A stretch of DNA of 64,000 nt from Patescibacteria group bacterium (lineage in GTDB: Bacteria > Patescibacteriota > Microgenomatia > 0-14-0-10-38-17): NCBI GenBank assembly GCA_050947035.1, contig JBMNVW010000001.1, forward strand, positions 48,967 to 112,966, read 5' to 3'. A program made the position numbers and the translations under genes. Shown here piece after piece: positions 1,404-63,935 of the stretch (positions are counted from its first letter, which is position 1; each line of letters starts with the position of its first letter). The notes beneath the pieces are model-generated. The model was not told the DNA's origin. It did no database searches and saw nothing but the letters and a program-made list of their open reading frames with translations.

Positions 1404-1507
1404 AATAATGTTTGTTCTTTAAACTTCGAATAATTTTTAATAACAAGAGGGATTTGGCCAAGGGAAATTCTTTATTTGGAAGGTCCTTGGGGAAACAATC
1501 CTTAAGT

Positions 1508-1777
1508 TTATCTTTTTAATTCTAATTTTTTGATTAATCCTTGATAGCGTTTTTGATAACGGTTAGACAGATAGTTTAATAATCGACGTCTTTTAGAGAC
1601 CATCGAAAGCAAGCCTCGACGAGAATGAACGTCTTTTTTGTGTTCTTTCAAATGATCAGCCAACTTGTTGATTTGGGCGGTTAAGAGAGCAACTTGAATC
1701 TCGGGAGAACCAGTATCACCTTTTTCAACCGCAAACTCTTTAATAATCTTCTCTTTTTCCTCTTTTTTTAAAGACAT
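1508..1777 (-). CDS. rpsO: 30S ribosomal protein S15
   Basis: 89 aa, [70 protein letters not shown], the classic S15 sequence; sits upstream of pnp. Confidence 0.92.
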
Positions 1778-1869
1778 TTTAAGTGGACTTGATTTTTTTT
1801 ATCCTTTTTAATCGTTCTTATTCTAACACCTTAATGGGGAAAAAAACAAGAGGCAATTTTTTCATCACT

Positions 1870-2697
1870 TTATTGACCGCTGCCTCGATAAATTTTGGGC
1901 TTATTAAAACGGCCTGGCTCTTTTTGCTTTTCTTGACTTTGACTGACTTCTTTATCTTTAAGTTGACCGCCAGCCCTCAGACAAAAAGCCGCCGCTTCAA
2001 AAGGACCAGGACCAATTTCCGAAAGAGAAAAAGAATTAGTGGCCGCTTGAAGCCCCAATAATAAATTCTGGGCCGCCTCTGATCCAAAAGACAACGATAG
2101 ACCTTCAATAACCCCAGCAACAACCTCGGAAAAAGAGAAGGCCTCAGTATCAATTAACTTAATTTGACCAAAAAACTCCGCCTGGTCAATGTTAATGTTA
2201 ATCAAGTTTAAATTATTAGGAATATCTTTGGCTCCCACAGACTGAATGGCTTGATCAAGCTGGGCTCGAGAAGAAAAACCCAAAGCAATAATATTATTAA
2301 TTTGGCCATCGCCTTTTTTAAACTTGACTAGATCCTGGCTAATAGCCGGAGCCTGGGTTTTTGGTTCAATTACCAAACTAACCCGTTCTTCTTCTTGATC
2401 ATCCCAATTAATTTTCTCAATATTTTTTAAAGGATAATTAATATTAATAATAAAGCTTCTTCCTTCCGCCTGATCGGTGATTTTGTCAACACCAATAACT
2501 TGACTAAACTCGACTGTCAATGATCGGGGACAAAGAACCTGAGTTTTTTTACCACTTTTATTTAATGAATCAGAAAGAGCAGCGGCAGCGGCCACCTGAT
2601 CTAAACGAGGCTTTTGGGGAAGCAAAATCTTAATCTCTTCAACCTGGCTTAACCAAGCATTGAGATCAGAAAGTGGATAACTTTTTTTATTCATCAA
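1870..2697 (-). CDS. DHH/NrnA-like protein with degenerate catalytic motifs (hypothetical)
   Basis: 275 aa between infB and rpsO, where many bacteria carry rbfA/truB/nrnA. The N-terminus LLPQKPRLDQVAAAAALSDSLNKSGKKTQVL aligns in shape with the DHH motif region (HxxPDGDAIGSxLAL) but lacks DHH/GGGH residues. Confidence 0.35.
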   Translation of the reverse strand: MMNKKSYPLSDLNAWLSQVEEIKILLPQKPRLDQVAAAAALSDSLNKSGKKTQVLCPRSLTVEFSQVIGVDKITDQAEGRSFIININYPLKNIEKINWDDQEEERVSLVIEPKTQAPAISQDLVKFKKGDGQINNIIALGFSSRAQLDQAIQSVGAKDIPNNLNLININIDQAEFFGQIKLIDTEAFSFSEVVAGVIEGLSLSFGSEAAQNLLLGLQAATNSFSLSEIGPGPFEAAAFCLRAGGQLKDKEVSQSQEKQKEPGRFNKPKIYRGSGQ

Positions 2698-2713
2698 TAT
2701 AGTGAATCAAACT

Positions 2714-4153
2714 TTAATCTTGCTGATATTTTATCATATCGCCAATCTTAAAATCAACGGCCGGAGAAAATGTTGCCCCAAACTCTTGGCCTTTTTTGAC
2801 ACGGTCAATTTTCTTCGATCCCTGTTGTAAAGAAACAATTTTAGTTTTTTTCTTCTTCCCTCCCTGGTTAATAATTGTTACTCTGGTTCCTTTTTCAATT
2901 TCACCTAAAATAACTTTAGCTCCTGCCACTCGGCCATCAGGAACGGTAAAATCGGCAATAATTTCTGCTTGACCGAGAATTTTTTTCTCCTCTTCGATTG
3001 TTTCCAAAGCTTTCAACTTTTCTTCAATAGACTGAAGTAGCTCATAAATTATTTCTTCCGTCTGGACATCAACTTCTTCGGCTTCAGCCAAATCAGCCAC
3101 TCGCCGAGAAAGAGAAACATTAAAACCAATAATTTCCGCCCCACCTGAAGAAGCAAAGAAAACATCAGAATCATTAATGTCACCGACTCCACTTTCAATT
3201 ATAGAGATTTTCTTCTGGGGGATTGAATTAATCAATGCCTCCAGAGTTCCTTGAGTATCGGCCTTAACAACTAATCTTAATAGGGTCTTTTCTTCTTGAT
3301 CAGCGGAGACTTCCTTTAAAAAGGGACGATCCGATTTGCCTACTTCAAGGGCAGGATCAGAAATTAAGCTTCCCGCCGCCAAGGGTTTGGTAAAACCCAA
3401 AATTGATACCGGCTGACTAATAAGGGCCTCTTTAATTGGCTGACCAGAATCATCAAAAAGGGCCCGAACCTTAGCCTCCTCTTCTTCGGCAACTAATTTC
3501 TGACCAACCAATAGCTTGCCCTGCTTAACAATCGCTGTTACTAGCATCCCTCTTTTGACATCAAGACCAGATTCAAGTACCACTCCTTGAAACGGCTTCT
3601 GGGGTTGATAGTCAAGTTCATTCATTTGAGAAAGCAGGACAATCATTTCTAAAAGTTCGTCAATTCCTTCCCCAGTTTTGGCCGAAACGGGCACCAAAAC
3701 AATATCTCCACCTCGATCCTCAGCAACAATCCCAAATTGGGTTAATTTATTTTTAACTTCTTCTTGATTGGCATTGGGTAAATCCATCTTGTTTAGGGCA
3801 ATTAGAAAGGGTACACCGGCACTTTTTATATGGTCAAGACATTCTTTGGTTTGAGGCTTAATTCCCTCATCGGCGGCAATAACCAAAACAACTAAATCGG
3901 TAATTTTAGCTCCTTGGGCCCTCATTTTCTCAAAAACCTTGTGACCAGGAGTATCAATAAAAGTAATTTTTTGATCATTGAAAACAATCTGATAAGCACC
4001 AACGTGCTGGGTAATACCACCAGCCTCCTTGTCTTGCAGTTTGCTTTGACGAATCCGATCTAAAAGAGATGTTTTACCATGATCAATGTGCCCCATTAGG
4101 GTAACGACAGGGGGGCGAGAAGGGGTGGAGGAATTTGTCTTTTTCTTGACCAT
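2714..4153 (-). CDS. infB: Translation initiation factor IF-2 (short form lacking N-terminal domains)
   Basis: 479 aa with a GTPase G-domain (GHIDHGKTSLLD, DTPGH, NKMD) followed by typical IF-2 domains; directly downstream of nusA. Confidence 0.95.
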   Translation of the reverse strand: MVKKKTNSSTPSRPPVVTLMGHIDHGKTSLLDRIRQSKLQDKEAGGITQHVGAYQIVFNDQKITFIDTPGHKVFEKMRAQGAKITDLVVLVIAADEGIKPQTKECLDHIKSAGVPFLIALNKMDLPNANQEEVKNKLTQFGIVAEDRGGDIVLVPVSAKTGEGIDELLEMIVLLSQMNELDYQPQKPFQGVVLESGLDVKRGMLVTAIVKQGKLLVGQKLVAEEEEAKVRALFDDSGQPIKEALISQPVSILGFTKPLAAGSLISDPALEVGKSDRPFLKEVSADQEEKTLLRLVVKADTQGTLEALINSIPQKKISIIESGVGDINDSDVFFASSGGAEIIGFNVSLSRRVADLAEAEEVDVQTEEIIYELLQSIEEKLKALETIEEEKKILGQAEIIADFTVPDGRVAGAKVILGEIEKGTRVTIINQGGKKKKTKIVSLQQGSKKIDRVKKGQEFGATFSPAVDFKIGDMIKYQQD

Positions 4154-4209
4154 AAATATTAATTAATAAATTGTTTTCGAAAATCTGGCTAATTAGAAAA
4201 TTCTTGCCT

Positions 4210-5370
4210 TTATTCATCTTTTCCAGACTGCTTTTTGTCTTGATCAGGCTTTTTGTCTTGATCAGGCTTTTTCTTTTTAGTCTTCTTGGCTTTTTTATTT
4301 TTTTTGGTTTCTTTAGCCTCATCAGCCGTTTCATTAGCGGACTCATCAGCGGATTTTTTATCAGCCTTTTTGGTCTTTTTTTCAGGCAAGGCTGAGGAGT
4401 CGATGTCAATCTCAAAATCAGTTAATTGACTGGCCAAACGAACGTTTTGACCATCTTTGCCAATTGCCAAAGATAATTGGTCCTCAGGAGCAGAAACTTT
4501 AGCTTTTTTTTCTTCTTGATCAAGATCAATAACTAAGTCCTCGGCCGGTAAAAGAGCCGCCGCAATCAATTTCTCCGGATCGGAAGAAAACTGAATAACA
4601 TCAACCTTTTCTCCTCCCAAAGCCTTAATAACTTCGGCCACTCGAACTCCTTTTTGGCCAACACAAGCTCCCACCGGATCAACGCCCCGCCGATTAGAAT
4701 AAACCGCCAACTTTGTTCTAACACCGGCTTGACGAGCGATAGCCCGAATTTCAACCGTGTTGTTGTTAATTTCCGGTACTTCTCGACGAAAAAGAGATTT
4801 AACCAAATCCGAACTTGTCCGAGAAAGAACAATTTGCCGCCCTCTTTCTTCGCTTTGGGTAATTTCTTTAATTAAAAAGTTAAGCTTAACTCCAATCGAG
4901 TAATCTTCGCCGTGAATTTGCTCTGATAAAGGCAAAATCCCATAAGTTCGACCAATATCAACAACCACCCTCCGACCATCTTGGCGAATAACTGTTCCCA
5001 TTGTCACCGAACCCACCTTGTCTTTATAATCATCAATAATGGCCGATTTTTCTGCCTCACGCACTTTTTGTAAAATAACTTGTTTGGCTGTTTGAGTAGC
5101 AATTCGGCCAAAACCGGGCGGAGTTACTTCCAACTTTTGGTCCGGTTTTTCTTCTGGAAACCCATAAATTTTTACTCCACCAGTTTTATTATCCAGACTA
5201 ACCTGATACTCCCAGTCCTCATGAAAACTACCCTCTTCTTGGGCATCACGGACAAAGGCGGCTAAAATTGCCTCCTCAATACTCAATAAAACCACCTCTG
5301 GGTCAATACTTCTTTCCCGAGCTAGCTCAGCAACGGCAATAGAAAATTCTGTTCTTGATAATTGGGCCAT
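4210..5370 (-). CDS. nusA: Transcription termination/antitermination factor NusA with Lys-rich C-terminal tail
   Basis: 386 aa, MAQLSRTEFSIAVAELARERSIDPEVVLLSIEEAILAAF..., S1/KH architecture, nusA-infB order. C-terminus is KK/PDQDKK repeat-rich. Confidence 0.93.
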   Translation of the reverse strand: MAQLSRTEFSIAVAELARERSIDPEVVLLSIEEAILAAFVRDAQEEGSFHEDWEYQVSLDNKTGGVKIYGFPEEKPDQKLEVTPPGFGRIATQTAKQVILQKVREAEKSAIIDDYKDKVGSVTMGTVIRQDGRRVVVDIGRTYGILPLSEQIHGEDYSIGVKLNFLIKEITQSEERGRQIVLSRTSSDLVKSLFRREVPEINNNTVEIRAIARQAGVRTKLAVYSNRRGVDPVGACVGQKGVRVAEVIKALGGEKVDVIQFSSDPEKLIAAALLPAEDLVIDLDQEEKKAKVSAPEDQLSLAIGKDGQNVRLASQLTDFEIDIDSSALPEKKTKKADKKSADESANETADEAKETKKNKKAKKTKKKKPDQDKKPDQDKKQSGKDE

Positions 5371-34300: not shown

Positions 34301-37300
34301 TTACGGGGCCAGTTCCTGCCAAATTTGGGGACTGTAACGAAAAACTTTTGGAGCAGTAAAAAAGTATTTCGGGTCAAAACGGAAAAATTCCGCTGATAAA
34401 GTTTCATTATTCGAGCCCAAATCCCGGCCTAAAGAGAAACCATTACGAGCAAAGAAAATCCCCCGGCCAATAAAGCGACTAGAAGAAACGCTAGTGGTTA
34501 TCTGATCACCGGCAACAAAAACACCCAAGGCCGAAGCGGTACCAATGTAAACACCGGAGGTGTCACCAGTGTTACCGGTGAAGTTAATACTGCCTGAAGC
34601 AATTAAGGCAAAAAAGTCAGCCGGAGCCAATTGTTCACCATCTTCCAAACTAACCTCAACATCGCCATCAAAGAGAACAATTACTTTTCGCCCCGAAAAA
34701 TCAGCCGAATCAGTAAATAATAAGGTTCCGTCACCACCCGGCTCCTGATAAACAAAAACCTCCTTACTGGGATTACCATTAATGGCATTAACAACTGCAT
34801 CCCCCTCACCGCCTTCAACCCAAACAATCTCTTCGTTGGCCTGGTTTAGATCCAAAAGAGAAGCAAAATAATTATAAGTGTAACGATCGGCCAAACGGGA
34901 AAGATCAGCCTCAACCAACCAATCATCATTATCAGGATTAGATTTTGTCGCCGCTAGGGCGTCACCAAATTCCTTAGCGGTTCCTTGCGGGGAAGCAATA
35001 ATAGCAGAAGAACCAAAATCACCAGAATCAAGGGAAAAATATCTGGCCCAATCGGAAACACTGCTAGAAACCAAAGAAGAAACACCATTATGGCCATATA
35101 CATTGCCCGATTGGCCCTGGAACCAGCCAACCGGAGACAGAGTTTCAAAGCACCAAACTTCGGAATCGGCCGTTAGAGCGCCATTGTCGGCCCGCACCCC
35201 CCAACAATAGCGGGTATCATAACTAACGTCCAAGCCAACGCTGCTCGTGTTCTCATCAACCGTCTGGTAACTACCCAAGGCAGAAAACTCCGGTGTGCCG
35301 GAAGGAACTTCGTTAACAAAAACCTCGAAGCTGTTATTATTGCCGGCGGAATTTACCCCCCACGCTCCATCATGGGTCCAGACTAAGGAAACATCATCAA
35401 TCCGAATTTGGGCTCCATCAGGAGGCTGGGAAAGAGAGGGGGCAGTTGGCGGTGAAATCGGTTCTGGACACTCGCAAATACTAAAATTTTCAAAAGCCGA
35501 TTGCTGAAGATACCCGCCACAGCCGTGCTTAGTTCCCTTGCTCGTTAGGGTGGCCGTTATGGTACCATCCTGAGGAACAATCCTCATTGTTTTTTCCTGC
35601 CAGTCACATTCTTTATCCACTATCATATAGTCTACCGTGCTTAAACTGCCTGATTCCAACTTCATAAAGGGTCTGGTTTGAGATTCACAATCAAAACCGG
35701 GAGCGTGGGCATTAACACCATAACCATAAACAGACACTAAATACTCCCGATCAGAATCCAAATTCTGGATATCTAAAGATACACTATAGTCATCGTTATC
35801 ATCGTTTGATGTACCCAAAAAATTACTAGCATTATATCCTTCAATACCAGCGCAACCATCTGGACAACTATCACTTCCCCTCAAATAACAAGTCCAACTA
35901 GAACCAGTACTTTTCGGATCCCCATATTCTGTTCTCCAAACCCGCAGAAAACCACCCCAATCAAAGTTTGATACCCACTCATTATCAGTCCAAATACCAT
36001 AATCAATATAATCACCGCTGGTAAGATCTAATGGAACACATTCCCCTCCATAGCTACAAGTCTGCGAAGCGGTAAAATAAATTTCAGATTCCCCCCACAA
36101 AGTAGTATCGTCAGAGGCATCGGCTGATTCATCCTTGCAAACGGGGTCGCTATGACCACCATAGTAAACCCCGGCCGTATACGGCCCGGCCGGATACTGC
36201 CTCACCGGCAACTCATAGGCCCGATCATCAGGAGCCGCCTGAACATTATTAGTATTCCAAATACAGGTTCGGCATCTTCCCTCATCTCCTCCCCAACTAC
36301 AGCCATTGTCCACCGATTCATCTTTGAACCCTCCAGCCTCACAAACAACATAATCAGGTGGCAAAACTATTCCTCCCGGATTGTTTACCTTCACCTCAAT
36401 ACTGGCATAATAGCAATCATCATTGGGAGTATCAGTATTGGCCGGCTCTTGATAAACTTGAATTGTTACCGGCTCTCCCACCTCGTGTTCTGTGCCAACA
36501 ATATTGACTTTTATCCGGGCAGCTTCTTCCTGAGAAGAAGGACAGCTACAGCAAATATCCCCCTCAATAGCACAGGCCCCATAGGGAGTATCGGCCACAG
36601 TGCAACCACTAGCCGCACACTGGTCAGGATTAGTGCACCACTGAGCCCCCACAGCACAACTTCCTGTTGTCGGAGTGGGATCACCGGGGGCTGAAGTTGG
36701 AGCGGTAGTCGGAACTCCACCACAAGGACCCACTGTCCAGGTGCCATAAGCATCAACTGAACCTAAACAACCATCGCAGCTGGTCCCCCAGACTCTGGCC
36801 CCACTACTACAACCACCACCATTGGTACAGCTAGTCCGATTTCCTGTTAGTTGGGCTCCCGACTGAACGACGCCGCTAACTTGACAGCAAGTCTTATACC
36901 AACCGCCATTAGCACAGCCCGTAACACAAGAGGTACTGCACCAACCAGCCAAAATTTTACCAGTATCATTTGACCCTGAAGGGTCACCATCGCAGGCATA
37001 AGCGACATTGGAACTACCTTCACAGCGATCAGCCGCCGAGCAATCCCGATATTGCCACTCCCAAGAACACTCAAAGCCAAGATCGTCAACACGAGTAACC
37101 TTACATTGAGCATCATAGGCATAGTCCCAGGTGTCCCAACCCTCAGGACAATCGGCGTTTGGCAAACAGCAAATATCCTCCGGCTTATTCCCGGGGCAGT
37201 TAGGAGTACTACAAGAAGACCCAACATAACAATCTGATGGTGGAGAACAATAAACATAATCCTCTATTTCACAAATACCATTACCGCAATACGGCGATTG

Positions 37301-37375
37301 GGCCCAAGCAGAAAAAGCCCCAAAAAACAACCCGCCCAAAAAAATTGATAAAAACAATAAGAATTTTCTAGTCAT
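34301..37375 (-). CDS. Large secreted Cys/Gly/Ser/Thr-rich protein (1024 aa; hypothetical adhesin/toxin-like)
   Basis: Signal peptide (FGAFSAWA|QSP), then more than 60 Cys in CxxC/CC-rich modules (CGNGICE, CSTPNCPGNKPEDICC), a Pro/Thr linker and a long C-terminal beta-rich region. Codon composition is visibly more GC-rich than neighbouring genes. Confidence 0.5.
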   Translation of the reverse strand: MTRKFLLFLSIFLGGLFFGAFSAWAQSPYCGNGICEIEDYVYCSPPSDCYVGSSCSTPNCPGNKPEDICCLPNADCPEGWDTWDYAYDAQCKVTRVDDLGFECSWEWQYRDCSAADRCEGSSNVAYACDGDPSGSNDTGKILAGWCSTSCVTGCANGGWYKTCCQVSGVVQSGAQLTGNRTSCTNGGGCSSGARVWGTSCDGCLGSVDAYGTWTVGPCGGVPTTAPTSAPGDPTPTTGSCAVGAQWCTNPDQCAASGCTVADTPYGACAIEGDICCSCPSSQEEAARIKVNIVGTEHEVGEPVTIQVYQEPANTDTPNDDCYYASIEVKVNNPGGIVLPPDYVVCEAGGFKDESVDNGCSWGGDEGRCRTCIWNTNNVQAAPDDRAYELPVRQYPAGPYTAGVYYGGHSDPVCKDESADASDDTTLWGESEIYFTASQTCSYGGECVPLDLTSGDYIDYGIWTDNEWVSNFDWGGFLRVWRTEYGDPKSTGSSWTCYLRGSDSCPDGCAGIEGYNASNFLGTSNDDNDDYSVSLDIQNLDSDREYLVSVYGYGVNAHAPGFDCESQTRPFMKLESGSLSTVDYMIVDKECDWQEKTMRIVPQDGTITATLTSKGTKHGCGGYLQQSAFENFSICECPEPISPPTAPSLSQPPDGAQIRIDDVSLVWTHDGAWGVNSAGNNNSFEVFVNEVPSGTPEFSALGSYQTVDENTSSVGLDVSYDTRYCWGVRADNGALTADSEVWCFETLSPVGWFQGQSGNVYGHNGVSSLVSSSVSDWARYFSLDSGDFGSSAIIASPQGTAKEFGDALAATKSNPDNDDWLVEADLSRLADRYTYNYFASLLDLNQANEEIVWVEGGEGDAVVNAINGNPSKEVFVYQEPGGDGTLLFTDSADFSGRKVIVLFDGDVEVSLEDGEQLAPADFFALIASGSINFTGNTGDTSGVYIGTASALGVFVAGDQITTSVSSSRFIGRGIFFARNGFSLGRDLGSNNETLSAEFFRFDPKYFFTAPKVFRYSPQIWQELAP

Positions 37376-37933: not shown

Positions 37934-39907
37934 TTACTCATTATCCAAACTAAAAACGGGGGCATCATCAATCATCAAAATTCGATTTACGGAAAAATCA
38001 ATTGGACCCCTTAGACTACCGCCGGTAATAATAATTTGATTATCACTAGATACAGACGGATGAGATAAATAAGAATTATCAATATTAGCAAAAATAAGTT
38101 CATCAAAATTAACTTTCCGGCCAAAATTATCCATCGTTACCTTTTCCGCCGAAACGAAAGTAAACCCCAAGGAATAATTAATTCCCTTCTGAGAATCAGC
38201 CAAGAGATTTTCCGGAATCCATAAACCAACAGAATCGCGTGTTTGATGAAAAAATCTTTTAGCAAGAACCGCCTCAATAAACGGAGACCTAAACTCCACC
38301 CTATTAGGCAAATTAGCAATCCCGATAGAATTAACAGTTATTTTAATATGCCTTATCGTTATTCCTTCTCCTTTCGGATCAAAGGGGAAAGTCATTCGCC
38401 ACTCACCTCTCTCGATCGCCTCTGGCGTATTGGCCTGCTCTAACAATCTTCTCCTTACTTCACCAGCCAAAACCAAACCTTGTCCGGAGGAAACACTAGT
38501 CTCATCATCAAATTCAAATAAATACCCGGCATATTCGCCCTCTTTCATATTGTAAGGATTACCAGATTCAGCTCGATAAATTATTTTATCTCCCTCCTCA
38601 AAGGCCGATAAGCCCTCGATAATTGGTGCCCGGTTTAACAAATCCTCCGCGCTAGAACCTCCCATCTCCTCCCACCCCCACGCCTCTTTCTCCTGATCAT
38701 AACTGGCCTTAAAGGTAATTTCTTTGCCTTCCTCGTTTTGGCCGGTAAAGATGAATTGATTATCCTCTCTTTCCAACTGGTATCTATCTTGGACTCCTTG
38801 AGGATAGGGCAAGATAGGATTTTTAATCTGCTCCCCATCAAGCTGGTCAACAAAGGTTAAACCAGCCGCTCGGTAAAGATCAGAAGACAAATCCTGACCA
38901 ACAAGCTTATTTAACTGCCAAATTGTTTTTTGATCAGTATCCGGATCAACAAAAGAAACGGCTCTTTGGACAGGATCATAATCATAACCATTGCCCTCCA
39001 AGAGGTTGGCTAATGTTAGGGCTTGTTTGTTGTCCGGATCAGCCGGGAAGTGAGTAGGAAGAAGGGCCAAATAGTGGCGGGGAGCGCCGCTATCTTCATC
39101 GGCCCGATTATAATCGGTGAAAGCTGTTAAAGCATAAACCAGCTCTGAGCCTTCTTTTCCCTGGTCAATAACCAGCTTGCCTTCTCTATCTTGCTCGAGA
39201 TAGCCCAAAACAGTCATTTGAGTGTCTCTTAAAAGCTCTAACCCTTGAGGAAAAGTCCACTCTGAATAATCTTCTCCAGAAGGATCTTTTGAGGGTAAAT
39301 TTTCAAGCTCCAATCTTAATAGAGTCAGGGGTTTTTCCTGGCCTTCTTTGTCTTCAACCAAACCGGGAAAGGCAATTGTTTCTCCTTCCTTGCCCGGGCA
39401 AAAGAAACCAAGTCGACCCTGATAAGCCCCCAAAGAAACTAGATATTTTAATGAGGTAATAGAATCTTCTGATAAAGAGGCAAAATCAATTTCCTCACCC
39501 CAAGATCGTCTAACATAGTCTTGGCCAAACTGGGCAAAGGAGACCTCTTTCCCTCCATTGTCAATTGTTTCTCCCCCGCCGATACCGGTAAAAGCATTTT
39601 GTAAATATTCCCGGTCAATATCAACCCCCTCCAGTAATTTGGCCTCCGGGGTGGGGGTCACTTCCGGAGTAGGAATGCCGGTGGGTTCTTCGGTAGCTGT
39701 GGGTAATGAGGTAGGCGAGACTTCTTTAGTAGGGGTTTTGCTGGGTTGATCGGTGGGGCTTTTTTCCGGTTGAGAAGAAGGGGTTTCTGGCTGACAACCA
39801 GAACCAACCAAAGCGCTAGCTCCCAAGGCTAAGGCGCCTTTCAAAAACTGCCTTCGAGTAAAGCCTTTCTTTTCTTTAGTCGGCTGGTTCTCTTTCCTGT
39901 TAGCCAT
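37934..39907 (-). CDS. Tat-signal lipoprotein (657 aa, hypothetical extracytoplasmic protein)
   Basis: N-terminus KGFTRRQFLKGALALGASALVGSGC has a twin-arginine motif (T-R-R-Q-F-L-K) followed by a lipobox-like LVGSGC, then a Pro/Thr/Glu-rich linker. Confidence 0.5.
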   Translation of the reverse strand: MANRKENQPTKEKKGFTRRQFLKGALALGASALVGSGCQPETPSSQPEKSPTDQPSKTPTKEVSPTSLPTATEEPTGIPTPEVTPTPEAKLLEGVDIDREYLQNAFTGIGGGETIDNGGKEVSFAQFGQDYVRRSWGEEIDFASLSEDSITSLKYLVSLGAYQGRLGFFCPGKEGETIAFPGLVEDKEGQEKPLTLLRLELENLPSKDPSGEDYSEWTFPQGLELLRDTQMTVLGYLEQDREGKLVIDQGKEGSELVYALTAFTDYNRADEDSGAPRHYLALLPTHFPADPDNKQALTLANLLEGNGYDYDPVQRAVSFVDPDTDQKTIWQLNKLVGQDLSSDLYRAAGLTFVDQLDGEQIKNPILPYPQGVQDRYQLEREDNQFIFTGQNEEGKEITFKASYDQEKEAWGWEEMGGSSAEDLLNRAPIIEGLSAFEEGDKIIYRAESGNPYNMKEGEYAGYLFEFDDETSVSSGQGLVLAGEVRRRLLEQANTPEAIERGEWRMTFPFDPKGEGITIRHIKITVNSIGIANLPNRVEFRSPFIEAVLAKRFFHQTRDSVGLWIPENLLADSQKGINYSLGFTFVSAEKVTMDNFGRKVNFDELIFANIDNSYLSHPSVSSDNQIIITGGSLRGPIDFSVNRILMIDDAPVFSLDNE

Positions 39908-56763: not shown

Positions 56764-59106
56764 TTATAATTTAGCTCGTCGGGTAATCTGCGCCTCAATT
56801 ACCGCTTTGTCCTTGCCATACTTTAGTCGAGACAGCTCAATAATATTCTTAGCCAGCTCCGGTTTCTCTAAAACCTTCTCCTTAGTCATATCCTTAGTCA
56901 AATCAAGAGAGAATGGCGGCACCGGTTCATTATTAACAATTGTTTTAACATAGGCGTTAAACCTCTCGATATTAAGAAGATCGTTTTCAGAAAAATCGGG
57001 CTGGAACTCATGTTGAAGGTAGGAGGCATCGGCTACCCCCACCCGAAAAGAAATCAAGCTCCCCACATTGCCAAAAACAGCGTTTTTAACTTCTTCTTCC
57101 ATCTGACCAATAAACTGATTGGCCACTGCCAAATTAAGATGATATTTTCTGGCTTCGGATAAAATCTGGGCAAAGTCTGGAGTAGCAAAATTTTGGAACT
57201 CATCAACATAAAGATAAAAATCGCGCCTTTTCTCTTCGGGAATATCCTGTCGGCTCATGGCGGCAATTAAAATCTTGGGTACCAAAACCAAACCCAAAAA
57301 GCTTGAGTTTTCTTCGCCAATCTTGCCTTTAGCCAAATTAATTAAAAGAATTTTCCCCTCATCCATTACTTTTCTAAAATCAAAAGATGATTGAGATTGA
57401 CCGATAATGTTGCGCATCATACTATCAGTAACAAAACGGCCAAATTTGGAAACAATATAATCCAAAACTTCGCTTTTATGAAAGTCTGATGTTTGAGCAA
57501 TCTGATCGGTCCAATAACGTTTAACCATTGGGTCCTTAATTTTAGGCAGTAACTCTTGAACATAGGAAACATCGGTTAGGACCCGAACCACCTCAACAAA
57601 AGTCGCTCCCGGTTCCGACATTACCGTTAACATCGCATTCCTAATAGCATGCTCAAAACGGGGACCAATAATACCGGTTTTATAAGGATCATAAAGCTTG
57701 TACATCAAATTAATAATTGAAGAAACAACAAAGTTTTTTTGCTCCTCAGTATAAGCCTCCAGTAAATTAAGACCCATGGGGCGAGCAGTATCGGAAGGGT
57801 CAAAATAAATTACATCTTCGGCCCGATCGGCAGGAATTCTAGGCAGAATTTTTTCAATCGTATCGTGGGGATCAATAAAACAAACTCCTTTGCCTTCTTC
57901 AATATCCTGGACAATCATCTGTTTTAATAGCTCGGACTTACCGGTGCCAGTTTTACCAATAATATAAAGGTGGCGACGACGATCGTCATCAGATAAACAA
58001 ACCGGACGAACCTCACCCCGATGAACGCTTTTGCCTAAATAAAGACCGGTTTTGGGCACTTCCGACGGCACTGGGGCTCGTTTGGCATTAAGCCAAGCAA
58101 TATTGGGCGTTTCAACAGTCTTGTTAGGAAGATGAAATATCGTCGCCAATTCGGCTGAATTAAGAATAATCTTTTTTCTATTCCATGGCCAAAGCGGCCA
58201 ATATCGATAAATAAAATTAATCATAAAAGCTCGCTTCCACCAAACTTTTTTACTGCTCAGGCCATTTTGGTCAGAATTAAATTGAGAAAGAGCGCTTTTG
58301 ATTGATGACAAATGCGCCTTGGCTTGATCGGTAGTTTTAGAACAAACCACTACCCGCAATTCCACCTCAAAACCGGGCTTAGCACACTTTTCTTCTATTT
58401 TTTCCAAAGTCTTACTATCCATCTTAAACTCGGCCTCTTCAGGATCAGCCTCTTTCTTTTTGGTCGAAGATAAAAACGACTTACCAATTTTTTGCCACTT
58501 ATTTCCTGCTGGCGATATTAAAATTTGGATAGCCACTCCTTCACCTTCAGCTAATTTAGATAAGGTTGAGGTTAAAGAAGAAAGGGGATCAACCGAAAAA
58601 TCCTGATAGGTTTTAATTGGATAAAAGGGTGAGTTTTTGAATTCGAAGGTTTTATAAACGACTTTGCCTTTTTGGGAGAAAATATTATACTCATCAATCC
58701 GTTTAATTACCGCATTCGGATAAAGACCATAAATTTGTCTCTCTAAAAGATTAACTTTTCCCTGAGGAATGGCAAAATAAAAACGAATGCTGTCCGGAGT
58801 ACCGACAATTTCGGCACTAAAGAAAAATTTCGGCTTTAAAAAAGAAAATTTACCGCCAGCTTTTAAAGAGTGTAGGTTAGTAAACAGTTGTTCGGCGGCG
58901 TCAATTTTAATTTCATTATCTCGAGGCAAAATTACTTGCAGTAAGACCAAATCAAGAGAGTGTTTTTCCCGATTTCTTTCCCGCCAAAGCAAAAACAAAA
59001 AATAAAACAAAAAACCCAAAAGGGCAAGACAAAAAAAACCCACTACCAACAAGATAATAGAACGGGCTAGAAAATAAAATAAATCATTTAAATTATAAAT
59101 CGTCAT
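56764..59106 (-). CDS. VirD4/TraG/TraD-like type IV coupling protein family membrane ATPase (FtsK-HerA superfamily)
   Basis: 780 aa; N-terminal TM helix, Walker A IIGKTGTGKSE, Walker B LYVDEFQNF. Translationally coupled to the upstream small ORF (ATGA overlap). Confidence 0.55.
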   Translation of the reverse strand: MTIYNLNDLFYFLARSIILLVVGFFCLALLGFLFYFLFLLWRERNREKHSLDLVLLQVILPRDNEIKIDAAEQLFTNLHSLKAGGKFSFLKPKFFFSAEIVGTPDSIRFYFAIPQGKVNLLERQIYGLYPNAVIKRIDEYNIFSQKGKVVYKTFEFKNSPFYPIKTYQDFSVDPLSSLTSTLSKLAEGEGVAIQILISPAGNKWQKIGKSFLSSTKKKEADPEEAEFKMDSKTLEKIEEKCAKPGFEVELRVVVCSKTTDQAKAHLSSIKSALSQFNSDQNGLSSKKVWWKRAFMINFIYRYWPLWPWNRKKIILNSAELATIFHLPNKTVETPNIAWLNAKRAPVPSEVPKTGLYLGKSVHRGEVRPVCLSDDDRRRHLYIIGKTGTGKSELLKQMIVQDIEEGKGVCFIDPHDTIEKILPRIPADRAEDVIYFDPSDTARPMGLNLLEAYTEEQKNFVVSSIINLMYKLYDPYKTGIIGPRFEHAIRNAMLTVMSEPGATFVEVVRVLTDVSYVQELLPKIKDPMVKRYWTDQIAQTSDFHKSEVLDYIVSKFGRFVTDSMMRNIIGQSQSSFDFRKVMDEGKILLINLAKGKIGEENSSFLGLVLVPKILIAAMSRQDIPEEKRRDFYLYVDEFQNFATPDFAQILSEARKYHLNLAVANQFIGQMEEEVKNAVFGNVGSLISFRVGVADASYLQHEFQPDFSENDLLNIERFNAYVKTIVNNEPVPPFSLDLTKDMTKEKVLEKPELAKNIIELSRLKYGKDKAVIEAQITRRAKL

Positions 59107-59441
59107 GACTGCTCCTTAAAGCCAACTTGGGCGCCAAAAATTTTAACCAATCTTTTCGACCATTCGGCCAACCAACGCCAAGAATCTTCTATTTTAGTTC
59201 TTAAGCCCTGTTCATATTCTTCTAGGCTTAAGGGCAAAACAACCTTAGGGTCTTGAGCCTTAGAAGAGGTTACTAAAGTCTGGCCGGTTTGGTCGTCTTG
59301 AATCGGCTGAATTAAATCATGCTCAGCTTTTTTTACTTCTTCAATATGACCGGCCATTTCCGGAGGAATACCCGAGGGTTTTATTTCTATAATCGGATAT
59401 TGATCAAGAGGAGCTAGTCGTTCTTTTTTGGCCGCTGACAT
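59103..59441 (-). CDS. Hypothetical small protein coupled to the T4CP-like ATPase
   Basis: 112 aa; its stop overlaps the start of the 56764..59106 gene. Confidence 0.3.
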   Translation of the reverse strand: MSAAKKERLAPLDQYPIIEIKPSGIPPEMAGHIEEVKKAEHDLIQPIQDDQTGQTLVTSSKAQDPKVVLPLSLEEYEQGLRTKIEDSWRWLAEWSKRLVKIFGAQVGFKEQS

Positions 59442-59462: not shown

Positions 59463-60215
59463 TTACTCCCGTCCTCGCCAAATAGTTTGGGGCAAAATTT
59501 CCTGAACGGTCTTTAAAAATTTTTCTTCTTGATTATAGGAAAAGGGGGTTAGTTTGCTGAACTTATTGTCAAGACAATTTTGGGGGCGAAAACTTTGCAA
59601 CGCCCAAAAACGGTCTTTTTCTTCAATCTCTTGCTCAACAAAAAAAGCCTTAAGCTGATTGGCCATTATTAACAACTCTTTTTCATTGTGAAGACTAGGA
59701 ACCACCGTTGTCCTAAAATCATATTGGCCGCTACCGGTTAAAAACCAATCTAGCACTAGTTTAAAACTCTCCTGAACCTTTTCTGACGGAAATTTCACTC
59801 CAACTGCTTCGGCGTATCTTGACCAGCTAATTTTATAATCTAGAGCAAAATAATCAACCACACCTGCCGTTATCAATTTCTTAACTATTTCGGGCCGGCT
59901 GCCATTGGTGTCTAACTTAAGAGCCAGGCCTCGATCTTTTATCTTTTGACAAAACCCAACAAGATCTTTCTGCAAGGTTGGTTCGCCCCCAGTAATACAA
60001 ACCCCATCCAAAATTTTTTGACGAGAAGATAAAAAATTAAAAAAATCCTCTTCTTTTACCTGCTTATAATCAGATTTTTCAAACGCCTCACGGGAAAGAA
60101 TGTCTTTGTTGTGACAAAAAGGGCAAGCAAAATTGCAACCAACCGTAAAAACTGTACAAGCAACCTTGCCAGGATAATCAACCAAAGTGGTTTTTTCTAA
60201 TCCTCCTAATAACAT
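59463..60215 (-). CDS. nrdG: Anaerobic ribonucleoside-triphosphate reductase activating protein (radical SAM)
   Basis: 250 aa, CNFACPFCHN (CxxxCxxC) cluster motif; downstream of nrdD. Confidence 0.85.
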   Translation of the reverse strand: MLLGGLEKTTLVDYPGKVACTVFTVGCNFACPFCHNKDILSREAFEKSDYKQVKEEDFFNFLSSRQKILDGVCITGGEPTLQKDLVGFCQKIKDRGLALKLDTNGSRPEIVKKLITAGVVDYFALDYKISWSRYAEAVGVKFPSEKVQESFKLVLDWFLTGSGQYDFRTTVVPSLHNEKELLIMANQLKAFFVEQEIEEKDRFWALQSFRPQNCLDNKFSKLTPFSYNQEEKFLKTVQEILPQTIWRGRE

Positions 60216-60241
60216 TTTAAGTCGACCGTTTTTAATTTAAT

Positions 60242-60401
60242 CTCAAACCTTATATTCTTTTCTATCACTGTATTCGGAAGACTTGCCGTTATTCCATTGA
60301 TTAACCGGACGTAAATAACCGACAACACGAGAATAAACTTCGCAAGGAGTACGATCGGCGTTTGTTACTTTTTTGGCAGATTTTTTTGCTTTTTTGTTCA
60401 T
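60242..60401 (-). CDS. Separately encoded NrdD C-terminal glycyl-radical tail (mini-ORF with its own SD; needs a +1 shift at 60300-60302 to read the conserved WNNGK segment)
   Basis: ATG at 60401 is preceded by AAAGGGGGTGA. It encodes MNKKAKKSAKKVTNADRTPCEVYSRVVGYLRPV; frame 0 stops at 60288, whereas the +1 frame continues NQWNNGKSSEYSDRKEYKV* to 60242. Together these match the NrdD C-terminus (compare E. coli RRVCGYLGSPDARPFNAGKQEEVKRR). Confidence 0.6.
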
Positions 60402-60623
60402 TTTTCACCCCCTTTATAAAAAATTTATAATTGTTAAAAATAATTTTTTATAAAGCCCACCAACGATTGCGACAAGAGCCATATACGAATAGTATTAAAA
60501 AGGCGACTGCGAAAATTGGGTGGGGCCCACCTTTTAAATTCAAAGCCCTAAGCTCAAAATTAATTTTTAAATTTTAAAATTTCTTTTGGAATTTAGAGTA
60601 TTTGGAATTTCCAGGAAAAGTGT

Positions 60624-63600
60624 TTACTTTTCCTGGTACCCTATTTCTTCATCGCACTTAGGACAAAATTGCCATTCACCCTTAAGGTAGCCATGAATTG
60701 GACAAATCGAAAAAGTAGGCGTAATCGAAAAATAGGGAAGCTTATAATTTTGAGAAACTTTTTTTATTAAGTTCTTAACGCTTTCGGTATCCGGCAGGCT
60801 TTCTCCTAAAAAACCATGTAAAACTGTATTATGAACAAACACCAGACAGTCCTTGCCAGCCAAATAATTATGGTTTTTCTTGGTCATCAAGTCATAGAAC
60901 AATTTGTTTTCTTTGGGCTTCAGCTTGGTTGTTCTCTTAACCCGCACCACCGGCAGTTGTCTTTTGGTTCGCCGTGATAATTGATTATTTATTCTTGAAA
61001 AATTAAAAGTATTTGTTAATCTATCGCTTATTCTCGTCATCTCATAAGCCGGAATTTTCAATCGCCAGATGTTTTTTTCATTTTTTCTCTTGGTCGGTTT
61101 TTCACTCTTGCTAATTAATATCCCGGCCAGAGTAAATATTTCTAATAAGTCGTCCGTTAATTTAGGGGAAACCGTATAATATTCAAAACTCCCGTCCCGC
61201 CTGGACAAATGTCCGTCACTATCCATTAATCCCGATAAAAATGAAAAAATATTATCGTTGCCAATTATATCTTTTACTTTCTTGGGCACCCCAACACTAT
61301 AAACCTTGCTGCCCGGCAAAAAACCCTTTTTTAGAAAAAAATCTACCGCTTCTTTCTTTGAGGTACTAACCTCCAGCAACCGATCGGATCTTTTGTCATT
61401 TTTTATAACATTAACCATACAGCCAAAATTGTCATTTAAAACTTGGGCAACTTTATTCATCGCCTCTTGATGTTCACTAAAAAACCTCAGTTTATATTTT
61501 TTAAGCTTATTACCGCCCCGATTGTCAATAAATTCTGACAGACAACCATCGCCAATATAAAAACCAATTAACCACATCAATTGATTTTCTAGCTCTCCCT
61601 TATTCGGTAAAATATTATTATTATTTTGTAAAATATAGTCTCCTTTTTTAAGTTCATCGGCCCGCCTGGTAACTACCTGATACTTGGATAGCTGGTGGTA
61701 TTTTTTTCGACAATCAGGATGATAACGCAAATGGGCGGCAAAAGCTTTAACATTTATAACCGGCTGATCACAAATCGGACATTTTTTAGCAACCCGTCTT
61801 TTTTTCATGACAAAAAATGGATGCCAATCAGAAGTAACAATATCAAGACCTCGCTCTCCTTCTATTCTTACTTTCCTCTTGCGCTCAACGTCAATTTCAA
61901 CCGCCTCCAACACTTCGTCCCACTCCGAAACCTCTTTCCCGGAATGATAACTTACCACCCGCAAAGGGCGCAATTTATTAAATTTCTCTACAATCTCCTC
62001 TATGGGCATCAACCCCTTATCGGTTAAAACTTTATTGCCTTCTTCGATACAACCTCCCGTATACTTACACTGCAACTTATCTTGCAAGTCTAGAGCTTCA
62101 AAAATATCCGTCGTATAATCAACTGGTAAATGTGAAGAATTGGTGTAATAAGGGGAGGCGCCATTTTCCTGATAATTCTTTTCGTTGGCACAAATTATTT
62201 TAGGAAATTGTTCTTTATCAAGGCGAGCAAAACGATAGGCAGTACTCTCGGCGGGGGTAGCTTCCAAATTAAACATTTCGCCTGTTTCTTGTTGATAAGC
62301 CAATAGTTTTCCTCTCATATAATCCATTATCTCAAGAGCAAAGGCTTGTCCTTCGGGATCGGCAATATTTTTACCTAAAAAATTAACCATCGCTTCATTC
62401 ATACCGTTTAAGCCGATCGTATTAAAATGGTTGCGCCAATAAACTTTGTTGCGCTTTTTTATGTCTTGTAAATAATGACGACAATAGGGGTAAAGCCCTT
62501 TTTCGGTAAATTCTTCTACGGTTTCTCTTTTGATCATCAAAGAATCTTTAGCCAAATCCATTAAGTGCCCAAGAAGAGTAAAAAACTTTCTTTTAGCAAA
62601 CCCTGGTGTCTTGGAATTAGTCTTAGCCAAATAACCAATTCGAGGTAAATTAATGGTTACCACCCCCAAAGAGCCAGTTAAGGGGTTAGCAGAAAAAAGA
62701 CCACCTCTTCGGCGCAATTCCCGATTATCCAAACGAAGTCGGCAGCACATACTCCGGGCATCATCTGGGTCCATATCAGAATTAACAAAATTAGAAAAGT
62801 AAGGAATACCGTATTTTCTAGTCATCTCCCAAACCGGCTCTAAGTTTTTATTATCCCAATCAAAATCTTTGGTAATTGAATAGGTGGGGATTGGGAAAGT
62901 AAAGACTCGGCCTTGAGCATCACCTTCCATCATATTTTCGGCAAAAGACCGATTGATCATGTCCATCTCTTTTTGGAAATCCTTATACTTGTCTTTCGTT
63001 GGCTTTCCGCCGATAATAACCATCTCTTCTCCCACCATCTTGGTTGGGTGAATATCTAGGGAAATATTAGAAAAAGGGGTTTGAAATCCGACCCGAGTAG
63101 GAACGTTCATATTAAAAACAAATTCCTGAAGGGCTTGCTTAGTCTGCTTATAAGTCAGACCATCATAGCGAACAAACGGGGCCAGGTAAGTATCAAAATT
63201 GGAAATGGCTACCGCCCCGGCCACTTCCCCCTGAATGGTATACATAAAATTAACAATTTGGCCCAAGGCGGAAGAAAAATGCTTGGGGGGGGCGCTATTA
63301 ACCTTACCGGAAACACCACCAAAACCCTTAGCCAAAAAATCTTTTAAATCCCAACCGGTACAATAAGCCGAAAGAGAAGACAGGTCATGAATATGAAGAT
63401 CACCCTGGCGATGAGCTTTTCTTATTTCCCGAGAATAAATTTTATTAAGCCAAAAGTTAGCCGAAATAATGCTAGCCACATGGTTATTTAAGCCCTGCAA
63501 AGAATAAGTCATGTTGGCATTTTCCTTCACTCGCCAATCACCTTGATTTAAATATTTTTCCGTTAGCTCATCAGCATCCACCAAACTACTAACACTTCTT

Positions 63601-63935
63601 AATTTATGGTGAAGTTGACGATAAAGGGTATAGGCGTTATGAACCTCGTCGTGGGAATGTTTAAGCAAGGTTTGCTCGACAATATCCTGAACTTGTTCGA
63701 CTTCGGGAACAATCGAAGAATTAAAGCGCTTTTCTAGTTCTGAAATCACCTCTTTGGCTAATCGACGAACCTCTTGGGCATCATCTTTACCGGCGGCTTT
63801 AAAAGCAGACTTAATCGCCCGGGCAATTTTGCTTGGGCTAAAGGCAACTACTCGACCGTTTCTTTTTTTTATCTTGGCAATTTTTGATTTTATTGCTTTT
63901 CTGGCCATCAATAACACCCTAAAAACCCTCTTCAA
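60624..63935 (-). CDS. nrdD: Anaerobic ribonucleoside-triphosphate reductase (class III) with ATP-cone, containing an intein; ORF ends just after the zinc ribbon, before the glycyl-radical motif
   Basis: 1103-aa ORF. ATP-cone N-terminus (KIKKRNGRVVAFSPSKIARAI), NrdD core, KYTGG|[intein]|TVLHGFLGE, and a C-terminal CPIHG...CPKC zinc ribbon, then stop. The likely start is Met10 (63908). Confidence 0.9.
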   Translation of the reverse strand: MKRVFRVLLMARKAIKSKIAKIKKRNGRVVAFSPSKIARAIKSAFKAAGKDDAQEVRRLAKEVISELEKRFNSSIVPEVEQVQDIVEQTLLKHSHDEVHNAYTLYRQLHHKLRSVSSLVDADELTEKYLNQGDWRVKENANMTYSLQGLNNHVASIISANFWLNKIYSREIRKAHRQGDLHIHDLSSLSAYCTGWDLKDFLAKGFGGVSGKVNSAPPKHFSSALGQIVNFMYTIQGEVAGAVAISNFDTYLAPFVRYDGLTYKQTKQALQEFVFNMNVPTRVGFQTPFSNISLDIHPTKMVGEEMVIIGGKPTKDKYKDFQKEMDMINRSFAENMMEGDAQGRVFTFPIPTYSITKDFDWDNKNLEPVWEMTRKYGIPYFSNFVNSDMDPDDARSMCCRLRLDNRELRRRGGLFSANPLTGSLGVVTINLPRIGYLAKTNSKTPGFAKRKFFTLLGHLMDLAKDSLMIKRETVEEFTEKGLYPYCRHYLQDIKKRNKVYWRNHFNTIGLNGMNEAMVNFLGKNIADPEGQAFALEIMDYMRGKLLAYQQETGEMFNLEATPAESTAYRFARLDKEQFPKIICANEKNYQENGASPYYTNSSHLPVDYTTDIFEALDLQDKLQCKYTGGCIEEGNKVLTDKGLMPIEEIVEKFNKLRPLRVVSYHSGKEVSEWDEVLEAVEIDVERKRKVRIEGERGLDIVTSDWHPFFVMKKRRVAKKCPICDQPVINVKAFAAHLRYHPDCRKKYHQLSKYQVVTRRADELKKGDYILQNNNNILPNKGELENQLMWLIGFYIGDGCLSEFIDNRGGNKLKKYKLRFFSEHQEAMNKVAQVLNDNFGCMVNVIKNDKRSDRLLEVSTSKKEAVDFFLKKGFLPGSKVYSVGVPKKVKDIIGNDNIFSFLSGLMDSDGHLSRRDGSFEYYTVSPKLTDDLLEIFTLAGILISKSEKPTKRKNEKNIWRLKIPAYEMTRISDRLTNTFNFSRINNQLSRRTKRQLPVVRVKRTTKLKPKENKLFYDLMTKKNHNYLAGKDCLVFVHNTVLHGFLGESLPDTESVKNLIKKVSQNYKLPYFSITPTFSICPIHGYLKGEWQFCPKCDEEIGYQEK
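60828..62051 (-). mobile_element. Intein (408 aa) with LAGLIDADG homing-endonuclease domain inserted in NrdD after KYTGG
   Basis: Begins with Cys (CIEEGNKVL) and ends VFVHN followed by the +1 Thr; LAGLIDADG blocks LIGFYIGDGCL and FLSGLMDSDGHL; internal CPICD...HPDC zinc knuckle. Removing it restores the conserved NrdD motif KYTGGTVLHGFLGE. Confidence 0.85.

Follow-up and report, generated by a model that had tools for sequence, protein, structure and literature searches.

The stretch of DNA analysed here, 64,000 nucleotides (nt) of contig JBMNVW010000001.1 (hereafter the window), carries on its minus strand a gene for NrdD, the class III ribonucleotide reductase (RNR). We consider it highly probable (about 0.9) that positions 62051..60828 of this gene encode a class 1 intein in which a LAGLIDADG endonuclease, probably active to this day, is nested, and that the intein is inserted between Gly619 and Thr620 of a Shapirobacteria-like NrdD whose gene is itself in two pieces. 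An earlier note on this DNA had placed a 408-amino-acid (aa) LAGLIDADG intein at 60828-62051. These coordinates are exact, and the strand, which had gone unstated, is minus. The intein itself is ordinary and joins an already known kind of RNR intein. What it offers is a clear natural case of recent homing among uncultured lineages of the candidate phyla radiation (CPR).

Anatomy and insertion site of the intein

Read on the minus strand, the segment gives an open translation, CIEEGNKVLT...DCLVFVHN, that continues directly into TVLHGFLGE, and the plus-strand translation of the same positions is riddled with stops. It scores above the cutoffs of two Pfam families, PF14528 (LAGLIDADG_3; 48.3 bits, cutoff 22.5) and PF14890 (Intein_splicing; 47.8 bits, cutoff 35.8), and of two NCBIfam families, TIGR01445 (intein_Nterm; 28.6 versus a cutoff of 24.5) and TIGR01443 (intein_Cterm; 18.1 versus 15.6). 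These matches and the terminal motifs bear out the canonical intein of the earlier note, with Cys1, a final His-Asn and a +1 Thr; the two Pfam families are ones it had proposed to search. The flanks of the segment match NRDD, the ATP-cone and the NrdD equivalog NF006126. No further intein was found in the ten largest other open reading frames (ORFs) of the window.

The anatomy of the element (Table 1) was read from two alignments, one of 39 same-site inteins and one of 29 sequences. In the latter, T73, S74, W76 and H77 of block B (T73-S-D-W-H77) are invariant, and the C-terminal H407-N408 with Thr+1 recurs in 39/39 extracted same-site inteins. Both of the LAGLIDADG blocks that had been claimed are intact in the window copy, where they read LMWLIGFYIGD168G and IFSFLSGLMDSD279G. 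Together, these signatures go far past what chance could produce. An AlphaFold2 model of the intein, for which the same-site alignment served as input, has a mean pLDDT (predicted local distance difference test score) of 91.4 and a pTM (predicted template-modelling score) of 0.89. When this predicted model was used as a Foldseek query, the top matches were solved inteins only (1dq3, 7qsu, 7qss, 7qst, 1vde and 2cw7), with the best fold matches, every one an intein that has a nested endonuclease, being PI-PfuI (TM 0.72, E 3.8e-24), the TliVMA and PhoVMA inteins, PI-SceI and PI-TkoII. Its central domain, the endonuclease core, matches I-DmoI (target TM about 0.75) and I-Tsp061I, and the sole sequence match to the intein in the PDB is PI-PfuI (E 4.4e-18). 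Both a HINT fold and a LAGLIDADG core fold are predicted for the window intein.

The insertion splits the invariant NrdD motif KYTGG/TVLHGF, in which G619 and T620 are invariant in NrdD alignments of 22 and 34 sequences. Related genomes hold empty alleles at exactly this site (P0017, P0018, P0019, P0020, P0023, P0026 and P0033), a point that the earlier note had proposed to check. These alleles read KYTGG/TVIHGFL and encode proteins of 686-689 aa that are 80-89% identical and come from metagenome-assembled genomes (MAGs) of Candidatus Shapirobacteria. The spliced window gene and the empty allele at locus L001 are 2061 nt each and align without a gap. The junction peptide of the ligated exteins would be CKYTGGTVLHGFLGE, and the empty site in L001 and L006 reads CAATGTAAGTATACGGGTGGC/ACTGTCATCCATGGC. 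Because the closest NrdD alleles are annotated as Candidatus Shapirobacteria or Patescibacteria, we take the host to be a CPR/Patescibacteria bacterium, in agreement with the CPR-like host proposed earlier.

Directly after block B sits a module of about 38 aa (residues 86-123) with a Cys/His cluster, CPICDQPVINVKAFAAHLRYHPDC, at residues 91-114. The earlier note had described it as a CxxC...HxxC knuckle. The cluster is indeed present, and its second half must be redrawn, since the putative ligands conserved across the inteins of about 408 aa are C91, C94, H107 and C114 (C-x2-C-x12-H-x6-C), and the histidine of HxxC, H111, is variable (N, S or Y). The module is missing en bloc from a subgroup of 366-371 aa within the same intein family (P0043, P0132 and P0136-P0148). 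Its predicted structure in the AlphaFold2 model is a beta-hairpin (89-98) and a helix (101-110), with pLDDT 84-90. No zinc-finger Pfam family matches the intein above threshold, and DUF7501 (E 0.005) is sub-threshold. Inteins with homing endonucleases are described as combining a HINT domain and an endonuclease with an accessory domain, variable in kind, through which DNA recognition is modulated, and by analogy with such accessory domains the knuckle is most likely an accessory DNA-binding module set into the splicing domain. If so, it might represent a new kind of such module and a second, smaller novelty, and its presence or absence within one intein family would be useful material for understanding how accessory domains tune homing-endonuclease targeting.

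Table 1. Features of the nrdD region, with positions in the window
Feature	Position	Strand	Evidence
Intein, Cys1 to Asn408, 408 aa	60828..62051	-	profiles, alignment, fold model
Residues 1-85, N-terminal part of the splicing (HINT) domain, with blocks A (CIEEGNKVLT) and B (GLDIVTSDWHPFFV)	61797..62051	-	alignment, TIGR01445
Putative C2HC knuckle module, residues 86-123	61683..61796	-	alignment, PI-PfuI comparison, predicted secondary structure
LAGLIDADG homing endonuclease domain, about residues 151-345	61017..61601	-	PF14528, I-DmoI / I-Tsp061I fold matches, dN/dS 0.088
LAGLIDADG motif 1 LMWLIGFYIGDG, residues 158-169, catalytic Asp168	61545..61580	-	alignment
LAGLIDADG motif 2 IFSFLSGLMDSDG, residues 268-280, catalytic Asp279	61212..61250	-	alignment
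Residues 366-408, C-terminal part of the splicing (HINT) domain, with blocks F (FYDLMTKKNHNYLAG) and G (LVFVHN)	60828..60956	-	TIGR01443, alignment
nrdD precursor ORF, 1094 codons from ATG 63908, stop TAA 60626..60624	60624..63908	-	
N-extein of 619 aa, with an ATP-cone, an NxN flap (KENANMTY) and a thiyl-radical loop (SMCCRLR), ending in LQCKYTGG	62052..63908	-	
C-extein, 67 aa: Thr+1, Zn site ICPIHGY...CPKC, end DEEIGYQEK, before glycyl-radical motif	60627..60827	-	
RNA hairpin CCAGGAAAAG-TAAACA-CTTTTCCTGG, perfect 10-bp, around nrdD stop codon	60611..60636	-	
nrdD-small ORF spacer, 222 bp, non-conserved; only Shine-Dalgarno AAGGGGGTGA at 3' end conserved	60402..60623	-	
Glycyl-radical (small) ORF, 52 aa, MNKKAKKSAKKVTNADRTPCEVYSRVVGYLRPVNQWNNGKSSEYSDRKEYKV	60243..60401	-	NF006126 649-682, PF13597, P0155
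nrdG-like radical-SAM activase, 250 aa	59463..60215	-	Radical_SAM, Fer4_12

Probable movement of the intein between lineages

For divergence, the window was compared with a second intein-bearing Shapirobacteria-like lineage, represented by L088, the locus that encodes P0002. The two inteins share 91.2% nt identity, with a synonymous divergence (dS) of 0.39. Identity falls to 78.5% in the N-extein, where a dS of about 1.7 is saturated, to 76.6% in the C-extein, where dS is not computable, to 76% in the small ORF that follows nrdD, and to 69% in nrdG (49% at the protein level). Measured over segments of 60 nt, identity steps from about 0.65-0.78 up to about 0.92 at the 5' border of the intein and back down at the 3' border. 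The presence of the intein does not track extein relatedness. The window extein is nearer to those of the intein-free loci L006 (81% nt) and L001 (80%) than to that of the intein-bearing L088 (78%), and the distribution is patchy. Between these two loci, the ratio of nonsynonymous to synonymous divergence (dN/dS) is 0.086 over the entire intein, 0.088 within its endonuclease domain and 0.056 in the extein. Taken together, the mismatch in divergence, the extein relatedness and the low dN/dS indicate recent lateral homing, in which the intein reached one or both lineages long after their split, and an endonuclease maintained under purifying selection. Late entry and purifying selection are what an active homing element predicts, and the mobile-DNA traffic proposed in the earlier note is thus supported by this mismatch. 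As a separate observation, the same pair of loci shares 49% protein identity in NrdG and 86% in the NrdD exteins, such that the activase evolves much faster than the enzyme that is its substrate.

The composition of the intein (GC 0.374, GC at third codon positions 0.38) matches that of the host (0.40 and 0.37), and the donor should therefore have been compositionally similar. Used by itself as a query, the intein retrieved 34 proteins, among which 33 are NrdD or NrdD fragments, including one from a Nanoarchaeota MAG, and the 34th is a marginal match to a class I/II RNR. When the full ORF was used, a same-site intein was also found in Halanaerobium saccharolyticum. The scan of species genomes kept the 80 best contiguous matches, all of which are intein-free. 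A 7-kb IMG/VR contig (L086) holds a split nrdD with two inteins (415-4800) together with nrdG and shows no evident viral genes; it is probably a CPR fragment.

From established intein chemistry, we envisage that the 1094-aa precursor would be translated and that Cys1 would form a thioester with Gly-1, which Thr+1 would then attack. Asn408, aided by His407, would cyclise and release the intein, and an O-to-N shift would leave a 686-aa NrdD chain with the sequence KYTGG-TVLHGF across the junction. Once free, the 408-aa intein would cut an intein-less nrdD around CAGTGTAAGTATACGGGAGGT/ACAGTTTTACATGG, and repair off the occupied allele would copy the intein into the cut one. The large chain, together with a small radical-bearing chain described below, would then constitute a working enzyme activated by NrdG.

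The explanation that survives best beside an active homing element is that the intein is genuine and its endonuclease is dead, such that the element splices, no longer homes, and has been kept by vertical inheritance since precise loss is rare. Decay of this kind does occur in the allele family, where LAGLIDADG residues have been lost from P0032, P0045 and P0145. Furthermore, a tblastn search of 50,697 phage records with the intein, which might have revealed a possible vector, returned no related intein and just a distant match to a RecA intein. Even so, the window intein has kept its two motifs and the catalytic Asp of each, and the dN/dS of its endonuclease domain is as low as that of the splicing domain. 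Vertical inheritance also sits poorly with an intein that is 91% identical between lineages whose exteins are 78% and whose flanking genes are 69-76% identical, and whose presence does not follow extein relatedness. We regard a dead endonuclease as unlikely.

Several points weigh against an intein that is both splicing and still homing, as we propose. Our expectation of splicing and DNA cleavage comes from motifs, fold and evolutionary signatures, and zinc binding and a DNA-binding role of the knuckle are likewise deduced. The transfer signature comes from a single pair of intein-bearing lineages, and the size of the contrast between intein and exteins should be taken as approximate, given that the extein dS is saturated. 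Strong selection on the intein DNA for another reason is a formal alternative.

A proposed two-chain host enzyme

The mechanically called nrdD ORF, 63935..60624, begins with TTG and has 1103 codons. The true start is probably the ATG at 63908, giving the 1094-aa precursor, because relatives begin there (MARKAIK / MVRGGIK) and AGGGTG precedes it. Removal of the intein raises the NF006126 score from 970 to 999.9 bits (cutoff 548), and TIGR02487, which is paired with NF006126 for NrdD, also matches the spliced extein (530.5 bits, cutoff 326). SMCCRLR and the zinc-site residues C661, H664, C674 and C677 are invariant in the NrdD alignments. The spliced chain is 686 aa long and ends, after ...ICPIHGYLKGEWQFCPKCDEEIGYQEK, at a stop codon without the glycyl-radical motif (RVxGY). 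A canonical NrdD bears RVxGY at the C-terminus of the same polypeptide, which the large ORF of the window does not.

The missing motif lies across a spacer that has stops in all frames, in a small ORF that shares the frame of nrdD. This ORF matches PF13597 with 40 bits (cutoff 26.2) over positions 532-562 of 562, and contains the glycyl-radical motif CEVYSRVVGYLRPV, with Gly28 in VVG28Y. Of the 684 positions of NF006126, 3-651 are matched by the spliced large chain and 649-682 by the small ORF. The two chains sum to exactly one NrdD, with the break after the zinc site and before the radical loop. Because the motif is in a separate ORF, we file the enzyme as a two-chain variant and not as a canonical single-chain NrdD. 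In sequence terms, this would be a class III RNR in which the large chain supplies the barrel, the thiyl cysteine and the zinc site, and a chain of about 6 kDa supplies the Gly28 that NrdG would radicalise. A protein identical to the small ORF (P0155, 100%) is found on a 467-kb contig of GCA_015657915.1 with a 99%-identical NrdD. In the source records, the small ORF is labelled 'anaerobic ribonucleoside-triphosphate reductase' or 'hypothetical protein'.

The same layout is widespread. Among the 120 best NrdD matches, 86 end before the glycyl-radical motif as the window large chain does, and each of the best 120 matches to the small ORF is a protein of its own, 40-78 aa in length. Every locus fetched by exact protein look-up (L001-L004, which are intein-free, and also L087 and L088) has the small ORF; its positions in relatives include 6311-6460 in L001, ~6149-6289 in L003, 8096-8224 in L005, 6508-6666 in L087 and 3852-3998 in L088. 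Across 80 species-representative loci (L006-L085) it is separate in 61, fused in 17 and cut off in 2. The split loci belong to Shapiro-, Woese-, Beckwith-, Falkow-, Buchanan-, Uhr- and Kuenenbacteria, among others. The gene order of the nrdD region and nrdG is syntenic in L001, L003, L087 and L088, and Halanaerobium saccharolyticum, a cultured organism, has its 42-aa small ORF behind nrdG, which itself follows nrdD. Natural fusions, P0040, P0061 and P0068 among them, retain both the CDEEIG[YF] tail of the large chain and the Lys-rich leader of the small one. Many of the Patescibacteria-like loci (L006, L012, L015, L018-L020, L028, L030, L036, L042, L044 and others) are titled 'uncultured Gammaproteobacteria' or 'Pseudomonadales'; these titles, from binchicken and third-party (TPA) assemblies, appear to reflect a wrong taxonomic assignment of the MAGs and can mislead summaries by taxon.

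We put at roughly even odds the proposition that the host encodes a naturally two-chain class III RNR with its buried radical loop on a separately translated peptide of about 45-55 aa, an arrangement that prevails in the Patescibacteria NrdD clade and is apparently undescribed. Our literature search, which left subscription-only papers mostly outside its reach, found no paper describing a split NrdD. It counts against a two-chain enzyme that the proposal is founded on gene layout and that the AlphaFold2 model of the natural fusion P0061 is too poor to interpret (mean pLDDT 68.8, with barrel segments below 50 and the linker, for which no disorder was predicted, at about 88-91).

One alternative is that the gap is removed or skipped, by a group I or group II intron, a programmed frameshift or a gene-60-type bypass aided by a hairpin, such that a single chain results. 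The shared frame of the two ORFs in the window would permit this, a strong hairpin surrounds the stop codon (-17.9 kcal/mol, z about -6), and T4 nrdD has a group I intron (PMC1865063, PMC3653736). The hairpin is kept in L088 with one compensatory change (G-C to A-U) and three wobble-compatible changes. However, it is weak or absent at most other split loci and reaches z < -2 in only 8/71. A search of 60150-60750 with Rfam at E values up to 10 gave noise only, with no intron or other family, and when seven Shapirobacteria-type spacers were aligned nothing but the Shine-Dalgarno sequence was conserved. Spacers range from 41 to 304 nt even among close relatives. Over 68 loci, nrdD and the small ORF are spaced by anything between -100 and +810 nt, with relative frames 0, 1 and 2 seen 18, 21 and 29 times, respectively. 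Every small ORF begins with an ATG of its own, its Lys-rich leader is variable, and in Halanaerobium the two ORFs are separated by nrdG. The Rfam result, the spacing, the frames and the Halanaerobium order rule out an intron, frameshift or ribosomal bypass as a general explanation, and we judge a skipped gap to be very unlikely. Possible roles of the hairpin are 3' stabilisation of the mRNA, attenuation and termination coupling.

Even less probable is that the locus is a decaying pseudogene whose glycyl-radical ORF is a leftover fragment. Such decay would account for a large ORF that stops at CPKCDEEIGYQEK without RVxGY and for the 222 bp of stop-ridden spacer before the motif. It is at odds with an extein dN/dS of 0.056, with an intact nrdG alongside, with a two-ORF layout in 61/80 species in which each small ORF has its own start (and, in Microgenomates-type genomes, a strong Shine-Dalgarno sequence), and with a CDEEIG[YF] tail that is conserved in split large chains of distant lineages. 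Least credible of all, to the point of being negligible, is a native NrdD domain in place of the 408-aa intein, given that intein-less orthologues, in which the earlier note proposed to look for such a domain, are exactly collinear without it at 80-89% identity, and that the segment matches intein and LAGLIDADG profiles and is predicted to fold like PI-PfuI.

If the two-chain enzyme is real, it would be the first glycyl radical enzyme with a detachable mini-subunit as its primary radical carrier, and that subunit might serve as a cheap, replaceable 'radical cartridge' after oxygen damage, making the spare-part logic of GrcA the default. The glycyl-radical domain of single-chain NrdD is highly mobile by cryo-electron microscopy and hydrogen-deuterium exchange (PMC11226230), which makes a detachable version plausible, and a two-chain NrdD would in turn bear on the mobility that this domain needs (PMC11226230). 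It would also bear on substrate recognition by NrdG and on how small-genome anaerobes might cope with oxygen damage, and Halanaerobium offers a cultured organism in which to test it.

The locus misleads annotation twice, because its ORF is 408 aa too long owing to the intein and about 35 aa too short owing to the separate radical segment. The earlier warning that ORF length misleads therefore stands. Its mature chain of about 690 aa is more precisely 686 aa, and that product is not by itself a complete NrdD. One RNR survey applied a length filter of 400-1100 aa (PMC9531940), which would drop both multi-intein alleles longer than 1100 aa and chains of about 50 aa.

Other features of the window can be noted briefly. 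Directly downstream of nrdG, a 780-aa protein (56764-59106, minus strand) has a weak match to HerA/DUF87 ATPases (DUF8128 in relatives). It is overlapped by a 112-aa ORF (59103-59441, minus strand), and the two are a conserved neighbour pair, syntenic in L001, L003, L087 and L088. Within the AT-rich spacer, a GC-rich palindrome, GGTGGGCCCCACC (60518-60532), was flagged as terminator-like on the plus (antisense) strand and is not conserved in the spacers of relatives. Rfam at its gathering threshold found four tRNAs only in the whole window. Two long minus-strand ORFs, 34301-37375 (1024 aa) and 37934-39907 (657 aa), match no Pfam family at E <= 1e-5.

Comparison with known systems

Class III RNR genes are known as frequent targets of inteins, introns and homing endonucleases (PMC3653736, PMC2795772, PMC1865063). 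Phage nrdD genes with inteins or introns are on record, and about 80 RNR inteins have been curated in RNRdb (PMC3653736, PMC2795772). Earlier cases of an interrupted nrdD, such as the intein of Clostridium phage c-st/D-1873, the T4 group I intron and Lactococcus phage 949, come from phages or cultured organisms. In contrast, the allele family of the window is abundant in Patescibacteria genomes from metagenomes. Inteins in this NrdD clade occupy at least five sites, all in conserved motifs. In P0017 numbering, these are about 182, about 227 (QGE/C...N/S), 276/277 (VGFQ/C...GN/TPF), 388/389 (SM/C...HN/CRLRL, at the thiyl-radical cysteine) and 619/620 (KYTGG/C...HN/T). A single nrdD gene can hold up to three inteins, with ORFs reaching 1861 aa, and two or three per NrdD were seen in the relatives P0004, P0005, P0006, P0010, P0016, P0021, P0022, P0027, P0029 and P0032.

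By both sequence and predicted fold, the nearest solved relative of the window intein is PI-PfuI, the Pfu RIR1 intein of Pyrococcus furiosus ribonucleotide reductase (PDB 1DQ3). The two have in common a HINT plus double-motif LAGLIDADG architecture and an RNR host. Block B is near-identical (TSPWHPFFVL in PI-PfuI, TSDWHPFFVM in the window intein), and block G reads IFVHN and VFVHN, respectively. Overall identity is nevertheless about 20%, and the host is an archaeal class II RNR for PI-PfuI and a bacterial class III RNR here. PI-PfuI lacks the C2HC knuckle of ~38 aa, its block B passing directly into FKIVEKRADELKEGD. The window intein is shorter (408 versus 454 aa), and its stretch past the endonuclease domain is also shorter. 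PI-SceI, the yeast VMA1 intein, matches in fold and is eukaryotic, with a different host protein and 14-16% identity. Its DNA recognition region occupies the same topological position as the window knuckle, although that accessory module is no zinc finger and is unrelated to the knuckle in sequence.

The putative two-chain host also has partial precedents. In Pseudomonas aeruginosa and relatives, the split class II RNR NrdJa/NrdJb has its C-terminal module in a separate adjacent gene (PMC9669993, citing Crona et al. 2015). The window locus resembles this arrangement in that a C-terminal functional module is supplied by a separate adjacent gene. However, NrdJb is a large folded protein (IscU-like plus a zinc finger) from a different RNR class with different chemistry, whereas the window chain would be a radical peptide of ~50 aa. 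A second precedent is GrcA/YfiD, a small stand-alone homologue of the glycyl-radical C-terminus of pyruvate formate-lyase that is radicalised by the cognate activase (PMC8683613). Both GrcA/YfiD and the window small chain are stand-alone and homologous to the radical-bearing C-terminus of their cognate enzyme. The E. coli GrcA is a 127-aa protein, and the window small chain has 52 aa. GrcA exists alongside a full-length pyruvate formate-lyase that has its own radical domain, which GrcA replaces only after oxygen damage. In contrast, the large chain at the window locus has no radical segment (a second, complete nrdD elsewhere was not searched for), and the small chain would thus be the obligate, primary carrier of the radical.

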